The notes under the pieces are model-generated. The model did no database searches. It worked only from the letters and a program-made list of their open reading frames with translations, and had not been told where the DNA came from. Source: Escherichia coli (GTDB lineage: Bacteria; Pseudomonadota; Gammaproteobacteria; Enterobacterales; Enterobacteriaceae). From it: a stretch of 64,000 nt of DNA. The translations under genes and the position numbers were made by a program. This document shows, piece after piece, positions 41,488-44,467 of the stretch. Position 1 is the stretch's first letter. Every line of letters starts with the position of its first letter. The DNA is taken from the NCBI RefSeq assembly GCF_044324785.1, contig NZ_CP172127.1. One strand, written 5' to 3'.

Positions 41488-42062
41488 GTAACAACTTATC
41501 ACAGGCCACCAACGGGCTGTTGATGCAACTGGTGATGGATCTCAAGAGTGGCTATCTGCGGCGATGTGAAGCGCTGGGGCTTTCCCGGGAAGAAATGCAG
41601 ATGCTGCAGGGGCTGAGCATTGAAGAAATTCACTATCTGTCAAATTCAGAAGTGTCGGTGCTGCGGCTGGATATTAACCACAACAATCTTGTGCGCATGT
41701 TGCAGCAGGCGCGGACTGAACAGAAACGTCTGCAGCGAATCGATCGCGCTCTGGCGCTGGGTGGGTCTATCGAACTCATGGCGTTTTATTTTGGTCTTTC
41801 CAGCGTGGATGTGGCTGCGCGGCGTCGTATCTCCGGTATTGATGTTCGTCCCGGAAGGGGGATCACCCTGAGTGACGATGAGAATTCTGAACTCTGGCGG
41901 TTGTGGCAGAAAGCCGGGATCAATGATGTGGAGAGTGTGGATGGGCTGGATGTCATGATGCTTTGTGCTGAACAGATGAACATTCCACTGACGGCCATCT
42001 GGCATGCCGTCAGAGGGTGGCATACAACCGGAAATCCGGATCAGGTAAGGAGTGCGTCATGA
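41484..42062 (+). CDS. Hypothetical ICE protein
   Basis: 192-aa ORF translationally coupled to flanking genes. Confidence 0.5.
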   Translation: MSNNLSQATNGLLMQLVMDLKSGYLRRCEALGLSREEMQMLQGLSIEEIHYLSNSEVSVLRLDINHNNLVRMLQQARTEQKRLQRIDRALALGGSIELMAFYFGLSSVDVAARRRISGIDVRPGRGITLSDDENSELWRLWQKAGINDVESVDGLDVMMLCAEQMNIPLTAIWHAVRGWHTTGNPDQVRSAS

Positions 42063-42307
42063 AGATGACAGAACTGGTTCCCGGAGTGCTGACAAGTCCG
42101 GGCGTCCCTCCCACCAGTCAGCGTAAGGCGGTTGAACTGGTCAATCGCTTCCGTCGTGGAGAGCGGAATTATCATGAACTGAAGGAAAGGGGATTTGGTT
42201 ATTTCAAGATTGATGTTGGTCCTGGCTGGCGGTTACTGAGCCGGAATAAAGGGCTGACCTGGGCCCTGTTGAGTCATGAACGATACAACAACATGAGACT
42301 GAAGTGA
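42059..42307 (+). CDS. Small hypothetical protein (82 aa)
   Basis: RBS AAGGAG before ATG; start overlaps upstream stop. Confidence 0.5.
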   Translation: MKMTELVPGVLTSPGVPPTSQRKAVELVNRFRRGERNYHELKERGFGYFKIDVGPGWRLLSRNKGLTWALLSHERYNNMRLK

Positions 42308-42316
42308 GGTGGAAAG

Positions 42317-42574
42317 ATGAGTAATGCAGCAAGACTCCAGCTGGGTTTTTCTCCGTTTTCAAAAACTATCGTGCTGGCAAAAATGCGTAATCTTGACGAC
42401 GGAACCAGTCTTCGTGTCGGTAATGATCCCGGTCGCGATGTAACCAATGAGGCGGCTCAGCTTGTCTGGCATCTGGTCATGGCAGAAGGTGGTGAAATTA
42501 TGTGGGAAATGGACGATGGCTCCCGCATGGTGCTGAAGGCTGAAAGTCAGGAGGCAACCAGTGAGCAAGATTAA
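42317..42574 (+). CDS. Small hypothetical protein (85 aa)
   Basis: RBS GAGGTGG; operon context. Confidence 0.5.
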   Translation: MSNAARLQLGFSPFSKTIVLAKMRNLDDGTSLRVGNDPGRDVTNEAAQLVWHLVMAEGGEIMWEMDDGSRMVLKAESQEATSEQD

Positions 42575-42776
42575 CTACCAGGCACTGCGTGAGGCGGCAG
42601 AGAAAGCACCGTGGGGAGACTGGGACTCATATAAACCGCACCGTGGCGCACGAGGTTATGAGGTCCGACTAAGTAAGACGAGTGAGGTTGACGGGGTGTT
42701 GCGGGGTGATGGGGCACAGTTGTTGCAAAAAGCCCAGCGCGGCGCAAAACCGCTGGAAAAACCACTTGCGCACTAA
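42561..42776 (+). CDS. Small hypothetical protein (71 aa)
   Basis: Overlapping start-stop with upstream ORF. Confidence 0.45.
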   Translation: MSKINYQALREAAEKAPWGDWDSYKPHRGARGYEVRLSKTSEVDGVLRGDGAQLLQKAQRGAKPLEKPLAH

Positions 42777-42787
42777 AGGAGATTGAT

Positions 42788-43153
42788 ATGGCACTGACGA
42801 AAAAACAACGTGCAGAACTGCGCATGAAGTTCGGCGGTCGCTGCGCTTATTGCGGCTGCGAGCTTGGCGAAAAGTGGCATGCAGACCATGTAAAACCGGT
42901 CATTCGTTTTGCTGGAAATATGCTTCACCAGGACCGTGACGATATATCCAACATGGTTCCGGCATGCCACCCATGCAATCTGCACAAGCATTGCAGTAGC
43001 CTGGAAGATTATCGGCGAATTATCAGTGATGGTCGTCGTGAATTCCTTGCGTCCGGGAAAGGCAAGGCGCTGGTTCGTATGGGATTGGTTGAAATGAAAT
43101 CTGACCCGGTTGTGTTCTGGTTTGAAAAATATCAAGAAGGGGCTACGGCATGA
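42788..43153 (+). CDS. HNH endonuclease (small, stand-alone)
   Basis: 121 aa; CAYCGC...HADHVKP...N...ACHPCNLHKH is an HNH motif with zinc-binding Cys pairs; RBS AAGGAG. Confidence 0.8.
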   Translation: MALTKKQRAELRMKFGGRCAYCGCELGEKWHADHVKPVIRFAGNMLHQDRDDISNMVPACHPCNLHKHCSSLEDYRRIISDGRREFLASGKGKALVRMGLVEMKSDPVVFWFEKYQEGATA

Positions 43154-43536
43154 CCACTATTACCAAAGAGCGACTGCTGACAATCAAACAGTGGCGCGAA
43201 ACATACGGACCGGGTAGCAACGTTGTCCTTCCAGCAGAAGAAGCGGAAGAACTGGCACGAATTGCTCTGGCATCGCTGGAAGCAAAACCAATAGGTGCAT
43301 TCCACATTGCAGAACAGCAAGTTGACGGCACAAGTGACTACCTCAAGGATGGAGAATGGCCTATTGATAATGGAATTATTGAGGTCTACGCCGCTCCCCC
43401 CGTTCCAGTAGTACCGGAAGAAAAACCAATGCCTAATCCTCTTAGCATGTACGCGGTCGATGCTGTTGCCGCTATTGCAGAGGTGAGAGGCTGGAACGCC
43501 TGTCGTGCCGCCATGCTTCATGGTAAAGGAGAGTGA
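43150..43536 (+). CDS. Hypothetical protein, paralog of 43744-44250 (N-terminal half)
   Basis: Starts MTTITKERLL and contains ARIALASLEAKP; the downstream paralog starts MTTITRENAE and contains FRIALASLEAEP. Confidence 0.5.
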   Translation: MTTITKERLLTIKQWRETYGPGSNVVLPAEEAEELARIALASLEAKPIGAFHIAEQQVDGTSDYLKDGEWPIDNGIIEVYAAPPVPVVPEEKPMPNPLSMYAVDAVAAIAEVRGWNACRAAMLHGKGE

Positions 43537-43537
43537 T

Positions 43538-43747
43538 ATGGCTATTGCCGCAAGTTACACAATGCATCTCTATTGTGACTGCCGCCAGTGTACGGAAGGT
43601 GTATATCCAGTGCCAGACTTCGGTGAGTATATAGGTACGTCATGGGCTGGCTGTGCAAAAGAGGCGCGCAAGGATGGCTGGCGAATAAGCAAAGACAAAA
43701 CACGTGCTTTTGCGCCAGGGCATAAAGTTTTAAGGATTAACAAATGA
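43538..43747 (+). CDS. Small Cys-rich hypothetical protein (69 aa)
   Basis: RBS AAGGAG; CDCRQC...C pattern suggests a zinc ribbon. Confidence 0.45.
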   Translation: MAIAASYTMHLYCDCRQCTEGVYPVPDFGEYIGTSWAGCAKEARKDGWRISKDKTRAFAPGHKVLRINK

Positions 43748-44250
43748 CCACTATTACCAGAGAAAACGCGGAAATTAAATCATTCATCACTGGTTTCCTG
43801 AGCGACGCGGCGCACGATAAACAATCGTCAAACAGCCTGCTTGCCAATGTGTTTCGTATCGCACTGGCATCACTGGAAGCAGAGCCAGTTGCGTGGCGAT
43901 ATCGCTACGTGAAAAAAGGCGTTACGGACTCTCAGGGGGAGTCGTGGGTTGGTGACTGGAAATATGTACCGACAAAAGAGGATTGCAACGACAGACCGAA
44001 CTATGAAATTCAGGCGTTATTCACGGCTCAGCCTGTGCCACTGACACAAGAAGTGTTGAATCTGGAGAAGGCCAGGATGCAGTTGCGTGTTTTGTTATCT
44101 GGACCTGTTCCTGCAATCACTCCGATGGCGCATGCCGTGGCAATAAAAGTTGTGCTTGATGCTCTGGATGCGAGTGAGCGGAGGGTGGCTGAACTGGAAC
44201 AGGTCTGCACTGCCGCGGGTATTCGTATCAAAGGGGAACAAGTGAAATGA
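43744..44250 (+). CDS. Hypothetical protein, paralog of 43150-43536
   Basis: 168 aa; shared N-terminal motifs with 43150-43536. Confidence 0.5.
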   Translation: MTTITRENAEIKSFITGFLSDAAHDKQSSNSLLANVFRIALASLEAEPVAWRYRYVKKGVTDSQGESWVGDWKYVPTKEDCNDRPNYEIQALFTAQPVPLTQEVLNLEKARMQLRVLLSGPVPAITPMAHAVAIKVVLDALDASERRVAELEQVCTAAGIRIKGEQVK

Positions 44251-44257
44251 ACTGAAA

Positions 44258-44467
44258 ATGCAGACAATTTCGGGTCCTGTGATTATCGACAGTAATGAGG
44301 TGACACAGTTTTACCCGGACCATGAAAGTGGAGGGGAACTCACCGCTGTTGAGTACCTTGCTGACGGGGGAAGAATCACCGCGAGGGTGAGGCACTCTTT
44401 TTATCAGGTTGCTGCGGCACTTGCCGGGGCATGGCGTGCGGATGATGCATCAAAAAGCGGTGGGTGA
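44258..44467 (+). CDS. Small hypothetical protein (69 aa)
   Basis: ORF directly after 43744-44250; weak RBS. Confidence 0.35.
   Translation: MQTISGPVIIDSNEVTQFYPDHESGGELTAVEYLADGGRITARVRHSFYQVAAALAGAWRADDASKSGG

Follow-up and report, generated by a model that had tools for sequence, protein, structure and literature searches.

The eight small open reading frames (ORFs) at 42059-44467 of the window, by which we mean the whole 64,000-nucleotide stretch of DNA analysed, are one conserved toxin-fold ICE gene followed by a scrambled 2.2-kb lambda-like prophage early accessory array, and therefore represent ordinary mosaic mobile-element DNA rather than a new multi-gene system. The best overall explanation, to which we assign a probability of about 70%, is that ORF1 belongs to the ICE core and that a phage-type "ea" array was inserted between ORF1 and the replication gene. 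Taken by themselves, the identity of the stretch and the evolutionary mechanism that shaped it appear highly likely from the comparisons below.

A packed cluster within an SPI-7/ICEclc-type backbone

The window is 100% identical to the chromosome of E. coli APEC E19035, and the element hosting ORF1-8 is an ~80-kb ICE of the SPI-7/ICEclc family. RefSeq genes in the window include int, parA, dnaB-PI, parB, DUF2786, DUF2857 and the eight ORFs, followed further on by an STY4528-family rep gene, PFL_4669, topoisomerase III, STY4534, ssb and pilL; the far end of the ICE carries TraI and a second integrase adjoining tRNA-Phe. The cluster lies after the parA-dnaB-parB-DUF2786-DUF2857 train and before the STY4528-type rep gene, behind which a 36-bp iteron-like repeat recurs 22.8 times at 46012-46832. 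The features discussed below are:

41484..42062, + strand: DUF2857 gene, counterpart of ICEclc BisC (RefSeq; Pfam DUF2857 plus a weak FlhD match)
42059..42307, + strand: ORF1, 82 aa, RelE/ParE-fold protein (Pfam ParE_like 4.6e-15)
42317..42574, + strand: ORF2, 85 aa, DUF7446, constant head of the array (Pfam 2e-13; phrog_1578 2e-31)
42561..42776, + strand: ORF3, 71 aa, chimeric remnant (Pfam Ead_Ea22 on residues 1-21 only)
42600..44054, no strand: variable mosaic block, within whose limits ICE relatives diverge from the window
42774..42792, + strand: junction motif copy 1, TAAAGGAGATTGATATGGC, comprising stop, Shine-Dalgarno and ATG (direct repeat D4)
42788..43153, + strand: ORF4, 121 aa, stand-alone HNH endonuclease module (phrog_2118 3.4e-56; Pfam HNH 4.4e-5)
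43150..43536, + strand: ORF5, 128 aa, short Ea22-like protein (full-length phrog_5117; also phrog_60, 3323 and 660)
43524..43542, + strand: junction motif copy 2, TAAAGGAGAGTGATATGGC (direct repeat D4)
43538..43747, + strand: ORF6, 69 aa, Cys-rich prophage protein (phrog_926; conserved CxCxxC and His62)
43744..44250, + strand: ORF7, 168 aa, in-frame deletion fusion (blastp; comparison with relative L002)
44258..44467, + strand: ORF8, 69 aa, constant tail gene of the array (phrog_5994 3.7e-24)
44729..45994, + strand: STY4528-family replication protein gene (RefSeq; gene order in 15 relatives)

The initial annotation had placed eight ORFs with good ribosome-binding sites here, and both the common strand and the limits are exact. 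The successive spacings are +9, -14, +11, -4, +1, -4 and +7 nt. ORF1-4 and ORF6 have AGGAG-type sites ahead of them, but those of ORF5 and ORF7 are weaker and ORF8 has none. All eight ORFs matched PHROG families and the long antisense ORFs of the cluster matched no family; together with pN/pS values of 0.16-0.32 for ORF1, 0-0.28 for ORF2, 0-0.28 for the 71-aa tail gene described below and 0.38-0.53 for ORF8, this indicates real genes rather than chance ORFs. Counting eight intact genes is nevertheless too generous, as ORF3 is a chimeric remnant, ORF7 a deletion fusion and ORF8 has lost a coupled start. Nor is the HNH endonuclease the only recognisable product, as had been stated: Pfam, and RefSeq likewise, also name ORF1 (ParE_like), ORF2 (DUF7446) and the N-terminus of ORF3 (Ead_Ea22).

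The closest framework for the backbone is the ICEclc activation operon, alpA-parA-shi-bisD-bisC-orf96323-orf95213-inrR, whose BisC is a DUF2857 protein (PMC7423338). The present ICE likewise has parA, a ParB-like gene, DUF2857 and further genes, with a PFL_4669-family protein bearing a Pfam AcaB domain nearby, and ORF1-8 fill the slot right after the BisC counterpart. Unlike ICEclc, it adds dnaB-PI, DUF2786 and a rep module that bears iterons, as is typical of SPI-7/pKLC102-type islands. Judging by gene names, we know of no ParE_like or ea-type gene reported in the slot after bisC in ICEclc.

ORF1 as a gene of the ICE core

ORF1 is an ICE-core gene lying outside the phage-type insertion. It was kept in all ICE relatives compared: 15 of 15 relatives in other genera (Edwardsiella, Pantoea, Cedecea, Photorhabdus, Rouxiella, Brenneria, Enterobacter and Pectobacterium) have the order parB-(DUF2786)-DUF2857-ParE_like-rep, with rep directly after the ORF1 homologue and no homologues of ORF2-8. 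Metagenomic sequences agree, one (L024) showing DUF2857-ParE_like-rep and a short contig (L025) DUF2857 followed by ParE_like. The stop of the DUF2857 gene, itself strongly constrained (pN/pS 0.03), overlaps the ORF1 start (ATGA), and ORF1 is probably translationally coupled to this BisC-like activator subunit, with the rep gene just downstream.

The RelE/ParE fold of ORF1 gives some substance to the proposed compact toxin module, although no coherent multi-gene system accompanies it. In RelE-type RNases (YoeB, RelE, YafQ) the catalytic residues sit near the C-terminus, where ORF1 conserves R58, H73 and Y76; these Arg, His and Tyr residues would be compatible with a working toxin. ORF1 could accordingly be imagined as a RelE/ParE-type addiction toxin that stabilises the ICE, with either ORF2 (downstream, HigBA-like) or the upstream DUF2857 protein as antitoxin, and its tight coupling to its neighbours and the purifying selection acting on it would fit. 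We consider this improbable. All 15 relatives retain ORF1 without ORF2, phage copies of ORF2 lack an adjoining ORF1 homologue, and DUF2857 is a 192-aa FlhC/FlhD-like activator subunit resembling no known antitoxin. ORF1 thus differs from type II toxins (YafQ, RelE, YoeB, HigB, ParE) in having no cognate antitoxin gene beside it and in scoring below the NCBIfam cutoff (14 bits against 62.85 for the RelE/ParE model TIGR02683). It is conserved singly between activator subunit and rep in ICEs and is solitary in phage early operons, where its neighbours vary (Dam/Dcm methylase genes, a Lar-like gene, unnamed genes).

A patchwork of prophage pieces between ORF1 and rep

Judged by homology and gene order, ORF2-ORF8 is a 2.2-kb copy of an accessory array known from lambdoid and P22-like phages as "ea" or exo-xis (lambda ea22, ea8.5, orf61, orf63, orf60a; P22 ead, eaA-eaI). 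It was found only in E. coli and close relatives. In phages the homologues occupy the stretch of the pL early-left operon from bet/erf to xis/int, or follow the O/P replication genes directly. As in the phages, the genes are small and packed or overlapping in an early operon, and the assembly is mosaic module by module. The expected Ea22 signatures are present as an N-terminus with GTG start (ORF3), the C-terminus AGIRIKGE (ORF7) and a K-G-E end (ORF5). In contrast to the phage regions, which are flanked by exo/bet and xis/int, the array sits between the DUF2857/ParE_like pair and rep in an ICE, has no full-length Ea22 (N-terminal modules, a remnant and a fusion only) and carries an HNH module; lambda ea8.5, orf61, orf63 and orf60a are all absent.

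In 324 phage records, DNA pieces of the region recur at 80-99% identity; no single record covers 80% of it. Prophages carry such pieces at 80-97% identity, abutting at conserved junction sequences. Of 5426 E. coli genomes, 2705 contain pieces, as do 491 plasmids, of which 444 are non-mobilizable replicons (~90-250 kb among the matches listed). The complete HNH-containing arrangement is found in only 4 genomes, whereas the ICE backbone is present in 65. In ten E. coli-type contexts, defined as loci carrying an identical DUF2857 protein, a constant head (ParE_like, DUF7446) and tail (a 71-aa and a 73/75-aa gene) enclose a variable middle. Relative L002, for example, aligns to 42599 (98%) and resumes at 44054 (91.5%). 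The site is accessory and variable within its conjugative element, its content differing between ICE copies. The initial idea of a coherent operon-encoded system does not hold, given an ICE-core ORF1 next to a separately acquired prophage patchwork with remnants and fusions.

The members of the array range from intact to broken. ORF2, which every E. coli ICE copy examined carries and none of the 15 relatives in other genera has, shows 80-82% amino acid identity to pL early-left genes of P22-like and lambdoid phages, where it is followed by an ead/Ea22-like gene with overlapping start, as in the window (14-nt overlap). Phage 683R2 shows the same order and overlaps (DUF7446, ead-like gene, ORF6 homologue, Ea22), and ORF2 and ORF6, ordered as in this phage, are 80-94% identical to phage ea-region genes. 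ORF6 is Cys-rich as first noted, with conserved CxCxxC and His62, but is not a zinc ribbon. ORF5 starts MTTITKE, contains RIALASLEAKP and ends KGE; it shares 56% identity with the first 122 aa of the 683R2 "Ea22" protein, and over its first 48 aa it matches a 157-aa protein of other ICE copies at 92% identity. With ORF4, these three genes are intact, full-length family members.

ORF3, by contrast, was annotated by PGAP as two pseudogene fragments. Its N-terminal 21 aa share 71% identity with lambda Ea22 residues 1-21, and like lambda ea22 it starts with GTG; the remainder is a fragment of another gene, matching the frameshifted p50/p51 of phiV10. ORF7 joins an Ea22-like N-terminal module (residues 1-103; phrog_660 1.6e-28 covers only the N-terminal part) to the C-terminal 65 aa of the ICE-conserved 71-aa tail gene (residues 104-168, ending AGIRIKGEQVK); relative to L002, 176 bp flanked by short similar sequences are missing at 44054 of the window. 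Lambda Ea22 has exactly this AGIRIKGE at its C-terminus. Temperate phages ST64B and HK639, as well as Klebsiella phages, carry genes with 54-62% identity to ORF8; a 1-nt deletion removed the ancestral ATGA-coupled start of ORF8 (ATGAAACTGAAAATG in relatives, ATGAACTGA in the window).

The HNH endonuclease annotated at 42788-43153 was confirmed by the Pfam and PHROG matches, and ORF4 shows the motif CxxC...DH...N...CxxC. It is 97.2% identical in nucleotide sequence to Stx phage ArgO145 over 42784-43171 only, this homology tract stopping at the gene borders. Of 5426 E. coli genomes, 384 contain ORF4 at full length, and its neighbours change from one context to the next. On this sequence evidence ORF4 is a stand-alone module imported from a prophage. 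Similarity to phiV10 stops at ~42792 and similarity to ArgO145 starts at 42784, which places the left crossover point of the HNH module at junction motif copy 1. Copy 2 encodes the K-G-E-stop of ORF5 together with the Shine-Dalgarno and start codon of ORF6, and the end of lambda ea22 has the same ATCAAAGGAGAGTGA. The window has two copies of the motif, where most E. coli ICE relatives, and likewise phages phiV10 and 683R2, have a single one.

A compact defence system centred on the nuclease, like Septu PtuAB or a retron-type effector, has very little to recommend it. ORF4 gave weak PADLOC matches to PtuB and PDC-M01B HNH domains (best 4.3e-8), and NCBIfam retron and IscB HNH matches far under cutoffs, but these span only the ~60-80-aa HNH core. 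Partner genes such as an ATPase or reverse transcriptase are absent, and the changing prophage neighbours and the confinement of homology to the gene borders point the same way. Most likely the HNH gene is a selfish or moron-type nuclease module. It resembles small stand-alone phage HNH endonucleases (~120 aa, HK97 gp74; free-standing homing endonucleases) in size, in its complete ββα-Me/HNH motif with two CxxC pairs and in being a gene-sized mobile unit. In contrast to these, it has no terminase gene beside it, either here or in the ICE; neither a target site nor an intron/intein context could be found for it, and it is only distantly related to solved HNH structures (4h9d, E 0.46).

Mechanistically, the array very probably changes through homologous recombination with resident prophages. 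Crossovers fall at short conserved junctions, namely the Shine-Dalgarno-containing YAAAGGAGAnTGATATGGC, ATGACCACTATTACC starts and a RIALASLEAEP coding stretch. Such recombination accounts for a mosaic of pieces 30-400 bp long, for the remnant and the fused gene, and for the HNH+ORF5 block with a copy of the junction on either side.

Expression and possible roles of the array

A scan of 35.4-47.2 kb predicted no sigma-70-like promoter on the + strand, nor any + strand terminator-like site between 39.6 and 47.1 kb, suggesting that the genes are read through from the parA-dnaB-parB-DUF2857 transcript. The scan used crude consensus sequences and would miss an ICE-specific promoter, for example a BisDC-dependent one, and we regard co-transcription of ORF1-8 with the ICE operon as somewhat better than an even bet. 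Expression would then follow ICE activation, as that of the homologues follows phage early transcription.

The suspected anti-restriction or compact defence function found no fitting family. PADLOC returned generic HNH-domain matches and one weak, isolated PglZ match for ORF5 (E 0.0016), with no further defence match among the eight ORFs and no partner genes beside the HNH or PglZ matches, and none of the eight ORFs belongs to a restriction-alleviation or anti-defence family in NCBIfam and Pfam. The guess was reasonable by analogy, as homologous phage regions carry restriction-alleviation genes such as ral and Lar, yet nothing in the cluster itself points to such a role. STAXI motifs and ssb are features linked to leading regions, and tandem STAXI motifs with ssb lie 5.5-7 kb downstream of the cluster. 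One could thus picture an anti-defence island expressed early in the recipient after transfer, resembling leading-region islands (ardA, psiB, ssb with ssDNA promoters) in its small genes, its location in a conjugative element and the nearby ssb and structured STAXI, with lambda ral in homologous early regions and a Lar-like gene adjoining an ORF1 homologue as further parallels. The case is poor, however. No member gene is shared with such islands, the ArdA gene of the ICE lies outside the window in another small-gene cluster ~38 kb away, and the cluster is upstream of the STAXI motifs, which cannot therefore drive it. The absence of the array from all 15 relatives in other genera and its remnants and fusions add to this. 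Instead of the likely undescribed system first suspected, ORF2-ORF8 are a known prophage array in ordinary mosaic DNA.

As a prophage-derived array inserted behind an ICE-core gene, ORF2-ORF8 would consist of small, individually acting genes: DUF7446, Ead/Ea22-like modules, phrog_926, phrog_5994 and the HNH nuclease. Phage exo-xis genes are early modulators without an essential role, and Ea22 promotes lysogeny (PMC7093339, PMC8614690). By analogy with lambda Ea22 and its neighbours, we tentatively propose that each product on its own modulates host or element physiology in a dispensable way, rather than serving with the others as one defence or anti-defence machine. Alternatively, the array may be a decaying hitch-hiker with no role for the ICE, kept inside the operon and constantly re-seeded from prophages. 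The ORF3 remnant, the ORF7 fusion, the lost ORF8 start, the differing gene content of ICE copies, the genera devoid of the array and the rarity of the HNH arrangement relative to the backbone (4 against 65 genomes) would all fit, but we find this rather unlikely, as four ORFs are intact family members and ORF2, the tail gene and ORF8 all have pN/pS values under 1. The retention of the head (DUF7446) and tail (the 71-aa gene and ORF8) in every E. coli-type ICE copy examined likewise argues against it and, under such selection, may reflect a specific and possibly cooperative use by the ICE.

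Genomic setting of the eight-gene cluster

The cluster at 42059-44467 comprises eight plus-strand ORFs, as initially annotated, tightly packed at intervals of +9, -14, +11, -4, +1, -4 and +7 nt, and the stop of the upstream gene and the start of ORF1 share 4 nt (ATGA). The good ribosome-binding sites ascribed to them were confirmed as AGGAG-type sequences at ORF1-4 and ORF6, whereas those of ORF5 and ORF7 are weaker and ORF8 has none. Annotation of the surroundings was taken from the RefSeq record 100% identical to the region, the chromosome of E. coli O2:K1:H5 APEC E19035.

Genes of the cluster and its surroundings
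34222-35484, minus strand: integrase, then parA and two hypothetical genes (RefSeq)
39114-40766: parB, preceded by dnaB-PI and followed by DUF2786 (RefSeq)
41484-42062: DUF2857 gene, directly upstream of the eight ORFs (RefSeq)
42059-42307, plus strand: ORF1, 82 aa, ParE_like
42317-42574, plus strand: ORF2, 85 aa, DUF7446
42561-42776, plus strand: ORF3, 71 aa, Ead_Ea22 start
42788-43153, plus strand: ORF4, 121 aa, HNH
43150-43536, plus strand: ORF5, 128 aa, phrog_5117
43538-43747, plus strand: ORF6, 69 aa, phrog_926
43744-44250, plus strand: ORF7, 168 aa, phrog_660 (first part)
44258-44467, plus strand: ORF8, 69 aa, phrog_5994
44729-45994: STY4528-family replication protein (rep), downstream of the eight ORFs, then in order PFL_4669, topoisomerase III, STY4534, ssb and pilL (RefSeq)

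All eight ORFs match PHROG families, no family match was obtained for the antisense ORFs at 42773-43135, 43132-43521 and 41646-42023, and pN/pS against diverged copies is below 1 for ORF1, ORF2, the ORF7 tail and ORF8, which together indicates real genes and not chance ORFs. The initial annotation had considered only the HNH gene recognisable; the Pfam matches of ORF1 (ParE_like), ORF2 (DUF7446) and the start of ORF3 (Ead_Ea22), with the PHROG matches of the other ORFs, show that this was wrong. None of the eight scored above an NCBIfam cutoff, a PDB sequence search with the eight proteins as one concatenate returned a single, non-significant match, that of the HNH protein (4h9d, E = 0.46), and no Rfam motif was found within the cluster.

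Farther on, the same record carries the TIGR037xx set of T4SS genes, the gene for ArdA, a restriction-modification system of type III, genes for a type IVb pilus, and a TraI relaxase gene and second integrase beside tRNA-Phe. The backbone of dnaB-PI, ParB, DUF2857, STY4528-type rep, PFL_4669, topoisomerase III, ssb, pilus, T4SS, TraI and an integrase at a tRNA gene is that of the SPI-7/ICEclc family, and by this gene content the host element is an ICE of about 80 kb of that kind. The first half of the window (1-34000) is a separate pathogenicity island adjoining the ICE, with pgtPCBA (~5.3-11.5 kb), a pap P-fimbria operon with papG-II (~16.7-24.7 kb), an IS66 element, tia, a phosphoethanolamine transferase gene and, abutting the ICE integrase, a gene for a 1171-aa AAA-domain protein (30255-33770). 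In the midst of the conjugation genes of the ICE, a gene annotated as a restriction endonuclease (56107-56697, plus strand) lies shortly before traD.

The master activator of ICEclc pairs BisC, a DUF2857 protein, with the ParB-like BisD, both products of its alpA-parA-shi-bisD-bisC-...-inrR operon (PMC7423338), and the position of the eight ORFs is thus immediately downstream of the BisC counterpart. When the plus strand was scanned with consensus sequences, no sigma-70-like promoter was seen in 35.4-47.2 kb and no terminator-like site in 39.6-47.1 kb, so that read-through from the ICE operon would be the simplest expectation. The PFL_4669-family protein of the ICE (46929-47609) bears the Pfam AcaB domain, AcaB being an activator of IncC plasmid transfer, and the DUF2857 protein has a weak FlhD match; with ParB, these two look like an activation module of the BisDC/AcaDC type. 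Directly after rep, at 46012-46832, a 36-bp unit whose palindromic core is ATGGTGCCAnTGGCACCAT is repeated 22.8 times in what looks like an iteron/oriV array, and the 266-aa minus-strand "hypothetical protein" that RefSeq places across it is almost certainly spurious. In the metagenomic relative L024, a zf-dskA_traR (TraR-type) gene (3179-3424) fills the slot between parB and DUF2857 that is held by DUF2786 in the window; lambda orf73 has likewise been reported to be a TraR homologue (PMC9239242).

Comparison among relatives distinguishes two layers in the cluster. Ten genomic contexts that encode an identical DUF2857 protein were compared. All start with DUF2857, ParE_like (82 aa) and DUF7446 (85 aa), followed in nine of them by one or two Ead_Ea22 genes; a variable gene set comes next in each, and rep closes the order, preceded by genes of 71 aa and then 73/75 aa. 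When one genome per species was scanned, 15 more distant relatives were recovered in Edwardsiella, Pantoea, Cedecea, Photorhabdus, Rouxiella, Brenneria, Enterobacter and Pectobacterium, every one with the gene order parB-(DUF2786)-DUF2857-ParE_like-rep(-PFL_4669) and none with homologues of ORF2-ORF8. DUF2857-ParE_like-rep also occurs in L024, and DUF2857 followed by ParE_like in the short metagenomic contig L025; the insert in the comparison locus L022 is smaller and made up of one 90-aa and one Ead_Ea22 gene. Of the ten relatives' junctions listed, at least eight have the ORF1 start overlapping or directly adjoining the end of DUF2857 (ATGA, GTGA or TAAATG). Since the order DUF2857-ParE_like-rep persists where ORF2-ORF8 are missing, ORF1 is an ICE-core gene; ORF2-ORF8 are best described from these comparisons as a 2.2-kb insertion between ORF1 and rep, seen only in E. 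coli and close relatives. Among 5426 complete E. coli genomes, the ICE backbone (DUF2857 and ORF1) is present in 65 and the full eight-ORF arrangement in four.

A mosaic of phage-type gene modules

Pieces of 42550-44060 recur at 80-99% identity in the records of 324 phages, among them Stx-converting, P22-like and epsilon15-like ones, and no record covers 80% of this stretch. Such pieces also occur in 2705 of the 5426 E. coli genomes and in 491 plasmids, of which 444 are non-mobilizable replicons; among the matches listed, all the plasmids are about 90-250 kb. In phages, the homologues occupy two sites, one in the pL early-left operon, with bet/erf on one side and xis/int on the other (683R2, Salmonella phage 29485), and one that closely follows the O/P replication genes (phiV10, 606R7, and prophages of ETEC H10407 and FDAARGOS_448). 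Phage 683R2 keeps the order of the ICE: a DUF7446 gene (81% amino acid identity), an ead-like gene overlapping its end, an ORF6 homologue (93%), and an Ea22-like gene joined to the latter by ATGA. Phage early operons hold homologues of these genes in matching order and with matching junctions, and share junction motifs with the window in phiV10, 683R2 and lambda; such an ea/exo-xis mosaic array is a locus type well known in phages.

ORF2 is a full-length match to DUF7446 (2e-13, model positions 2-69 of 70), and a search with it returned 332 related clusters, which among the matches listed all belong to PF24233 and, where named, to Enterobacterales. The Ead_Ea22 match of ORF3 is limited to its first 21 residues; its start resembles that of lambda Ea22 (VSKINYQALREAAEKAPWGDW aligned with VSEINSQALREAAEQAMHDDW, with a GTG start in both), and PGAP annotates the stretch as two pseudogene fragments. 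ORF5 is a full-length member of phrog_5117 and ends in KGE, while ORF7 matches phrog_660 over its first ~108 residues only and ends in AGIRIKGE, eight residues identical to the C-terminus of lambda Ea22. Neither ORF5 nor ORF7 matched PF13935; both resemble the N-terminal ~100-120 aa of phage proteins annotated as Ea22 (56% identity). The full Ea22 architecture of N-terminal region, coiled coil, C-terminal domain and +GE end was found in none of the three; ORF3, ORF5 and ORF7 are parts of Ea22-type genes and do not add up to an intact member. ORF8 belongs to phrog_5994, with relatives 54-62% identical in ST64B, HK639 and Klebsiella phages. ORF6, a member of phrog_926, had been described as zinc-ribbon-like, but two zinc knuckles on a beta-hairpin ribbon fold were not found. 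A 310-aa "Ead/Ea22-like family protein" of E. marmotae (AFDB A0A7L6LCT7) contains the whole ORF6 fold (TM 0.93, 90% identity), probably as a fusion produced by reading through the KGE/Shine-Dalgarno junction. The phage counterparts are expressed early, are dispensable and affect the lysis-lysogeny decision, Ea22 favouring lysogeny (PMC7093339, PMC8614690, PMC3824215); by analogy, the array genes of the ICE may act in a similar way.

Local blastn resolved the array into short tracts that each match a different source.

Source map of the array (window coordinates; nucleotide identity)
42318-42607: 683R2 and phage 29485, 80-81%
42676-42792: phiV10 p50/p51, 92-94%
42784-43171: ArgO145 (HNH gene), 97%
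43146-43292: N-terminus of a 157-aa gene in other ICE copies, 92%
43387-43524: 683R2 Ea22, 92%
43524-43763: ORF6 homologues of phiV10, 683R2 and 606R7, 89-92%
43855-44059: ICE 157-aa gene and 606R7, 92-93%
from 44054: ICE tail, 91.5%

The crossovers between tracts lie in short shared sequences. The motif YAAAGGAGAnTGATATGGC, present once in most E. coli ICE relatives, phiV10 and 683R2, occurs twice in the window (42774 and 43524), where its copies flank a 750-bp block of the HNH gene and ORF5. The left border of the HNH tract falls inside TGATATGGC, and the right border inside GGCATGACCACTATTACCAAAGAGC, the conserved start of MTTITKE-type genes, which recurs at 43744. The significance of the "+GE" C-terminal tripeptide of Ea22 proteins has been reported as unknown (PMC7093339). 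In the window (43524-43542 and 44230-44250) and at the 3' end of lambda ea22 (L049), its codons lie in AAAGGAGAG or AAAGGGGAA, a Shine-Dalgarno-like sequence 7-10 nt before the ATG of the next gene that doubles as a recombination junction. The pattern is that of classic gene-border module exchange, in this case between the ICE and prophages in the same host.

In ORF7, a deletion of 176 bp between two short stretches of similar sequence has joined an Ea22-like N-terminal module to the final 65 codons of the tail gene of 71 aa, which is conserved. At 44244-44262, relatives have ATGAAACTGAAAATG, with an ATGA-coupled start of the ORF8 homologue, and the window has ATGAACTGA, with a 1-nt deletion, so that ORF8 is forced to start at an internal ATG without a ribosome-binding site. 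Such lesions, and the pseudogene calls in ORF3, are what decaying hitch-hiker DNA would display; set against the pN/pS values of ORF2, the ORF7 tail and ORF8, we regard this explanation of the array as unlikely, if still worth weighing.

The HNH gene illustrates the import of a single module. ORF4 matches Pfam HNH (4.4e-5) and phrog_2118 (3.4e-56), and its ββα-Me motif is complete (C19xxC22 ... H31xD33H34 ... N56 ... C60xxC63N64xxK), identifying it as a predicted HNH endonuclease. The gene is full length in 384 of the 5426 E. coli genomes, its matches are chromosomal at 744 of 748 places, and the contexts examined are prophage accessory arrays with different neighbours in each. About 320 further genomes have only a part of it, which among the matches listed is the last ~35-50 nt, another junction. 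An HNH insertion inside a single gene in the style of a homing endonuclease was not supported, as ORF5 is a full-length short Ea22-like gene and the HNH gene lies between modules; the nuclease may nevertheless be a selfish one. That the HNH gene is the centre of a defence system is extremely improbable: PADLOC returned only generic HNH-domain matches for ORF4 and a weak PglZ match for ORF5 (E = 0.0016), with no partner genes for either and no system-level match. Neither an adjacent terminase nor a target-site signature was found for ORF4. The best reading of these data is a stand-alone, recently imported predicted nuclease module.

A toxin fold beside the BisC-type gene

ORF1 matches ParE_like (4.6e-15) and belongs to a small family, with 36 representatives at 50% clustering; its distant relatives were reached by exhaustive HMMER search, k-mer protein search having given only near-identical proteins. 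Its AF2 model is confident (pLDDT 88), and the best PDB matches of this model are all RelE/ParE toxins (YafQ, 6.0; RelE3, 5.7; YoeB, 5.5; HigB, 5.4; ParE2, 4.8), which gives ORF1 the RelE/ParE (BECR) fold. Invariant or almost invariant residues are R58, S61, G65, W68, H73 and Y76. Among them, the Arg and the His-x-x-Tyr pair are reminiscent of the catalytic residues of RelE-type RNases, and conservation of R58, H73 and Y76 is only suggestive of toxicity by mRNA cleavage or gyrase poisoning. Lambda Orf55 was discarded as a relative, its weak blastp match being to the ORF1 C-terminus (E = 0.03 against six proteins) and its family-profile E-value 0.69.

One alternative is a toxin-antitoxin or addiction module around ORF1. 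No adjacent co-conserved antitoxin gene was found in ICE relatives or phage homologues, however, and ORF1 therefore has the fold of a type II toxin and lacks the gene pair. A conserved ORF1-ORF2 pair was likewise rejected: ORF2 is absent from all 15 relatives that keep ORF1, and phages carry ORF2 without ORF1. The neighbours of phage ORF1 homologues vary, with none constant, and distant relatives lie in lambdoid pL operons or beside a Lar-like gene; in ICEs the sole constant neighbour is DUF2857, which is not a known antitoxin type. We consider such a module improbable.

ORF1 invariably stands between the BisC-like DUF2857 gene, whose stop its start mostly overlaps, and rep, and this fixed place is the one feature of the cluster that known biology does not explain. 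It is a speculative proposal, and a doubtful one, that in ICEs of the SPI-7 branch the BisDC-type switch to transfer competence has ORF1 as a component of a new kind. Were it so, ORF1 could be a translation or growth brake arresting activated donor cells, or could titrate the activator, with DUF2857 doubling as neutraliser, and the phage-type array behind it would be a secondary add-on.

Early entry and interpretation of the cluster

The cluster had been suggested to lie in the early-entering part of the element, where anti-restriction or anti-defence genes tend to sit. From the coordinates, we estimate that the TraI gene, at the tRNA-Phe end of the ~80-kb element, is ~10 kb from the cluster across the joint of the circular form; the literature search yielded no oriT position for ICEclc. 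Two tandem STAXI RNA motifs (Rfam RF01728) at 49955-50261 on the plus strand, which score 61.6 and 66.3 bits where the gathering score is 40.5, lie downstream of the cluster between topoisomerase III and the STY4534-family/ssb genes, and may mark a part of the ICE expressed early from single-stranded DNA. ArdA is located in a gene cluster other than ORF1-ORF8, and an anti-restriction or anti-defence island at ORF1-ORF8 has, in our judgement, little probability. In NZ_CP126926.1 (4635082-4643187, same ICE, outside the window), a type III restriction-modification system is adjoined by a run of small genes including ArdA, LPD29 and DUF1281 genes, which is a more conventional candidate for the anti-restriction region of the ICE.

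The best-supported account is that of an ICE-core gene with a predicted toxin fold, ORF1, followed by a phage-type accessory array that is kept in flux by junction-mediated recombination with prophages and is probably expressed together with the ICE activation operon, and whose products may act singly. All parts belong to named Pfam or PHROG families, most already labelled in RefSeq; apart from ORF1, they are known phage gene families of unknown function, named in RefSeq. No paper dealing with DUF7446, PF24732 or ea-type genes in ICEs came out of the literature search. What is new about the array is its location inside an ICE core operon, and not its kind.

Annotators should treat the cluster as a single ICE-core gene with a phage-derived insertion behind it, and not as an operon-level system. 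The site is an exchange point at which the ICE and lambdoid prophages trade gene-sized modules via shared junction sequences, a concrete case of phage-ICE gene flow within an ICE core operon. ORF1 is the useful lead, as a toxin fold kept beside a BisC-type activator in every relative examined, and could bear on how such ICEs arrest or reprogramme donor cells.
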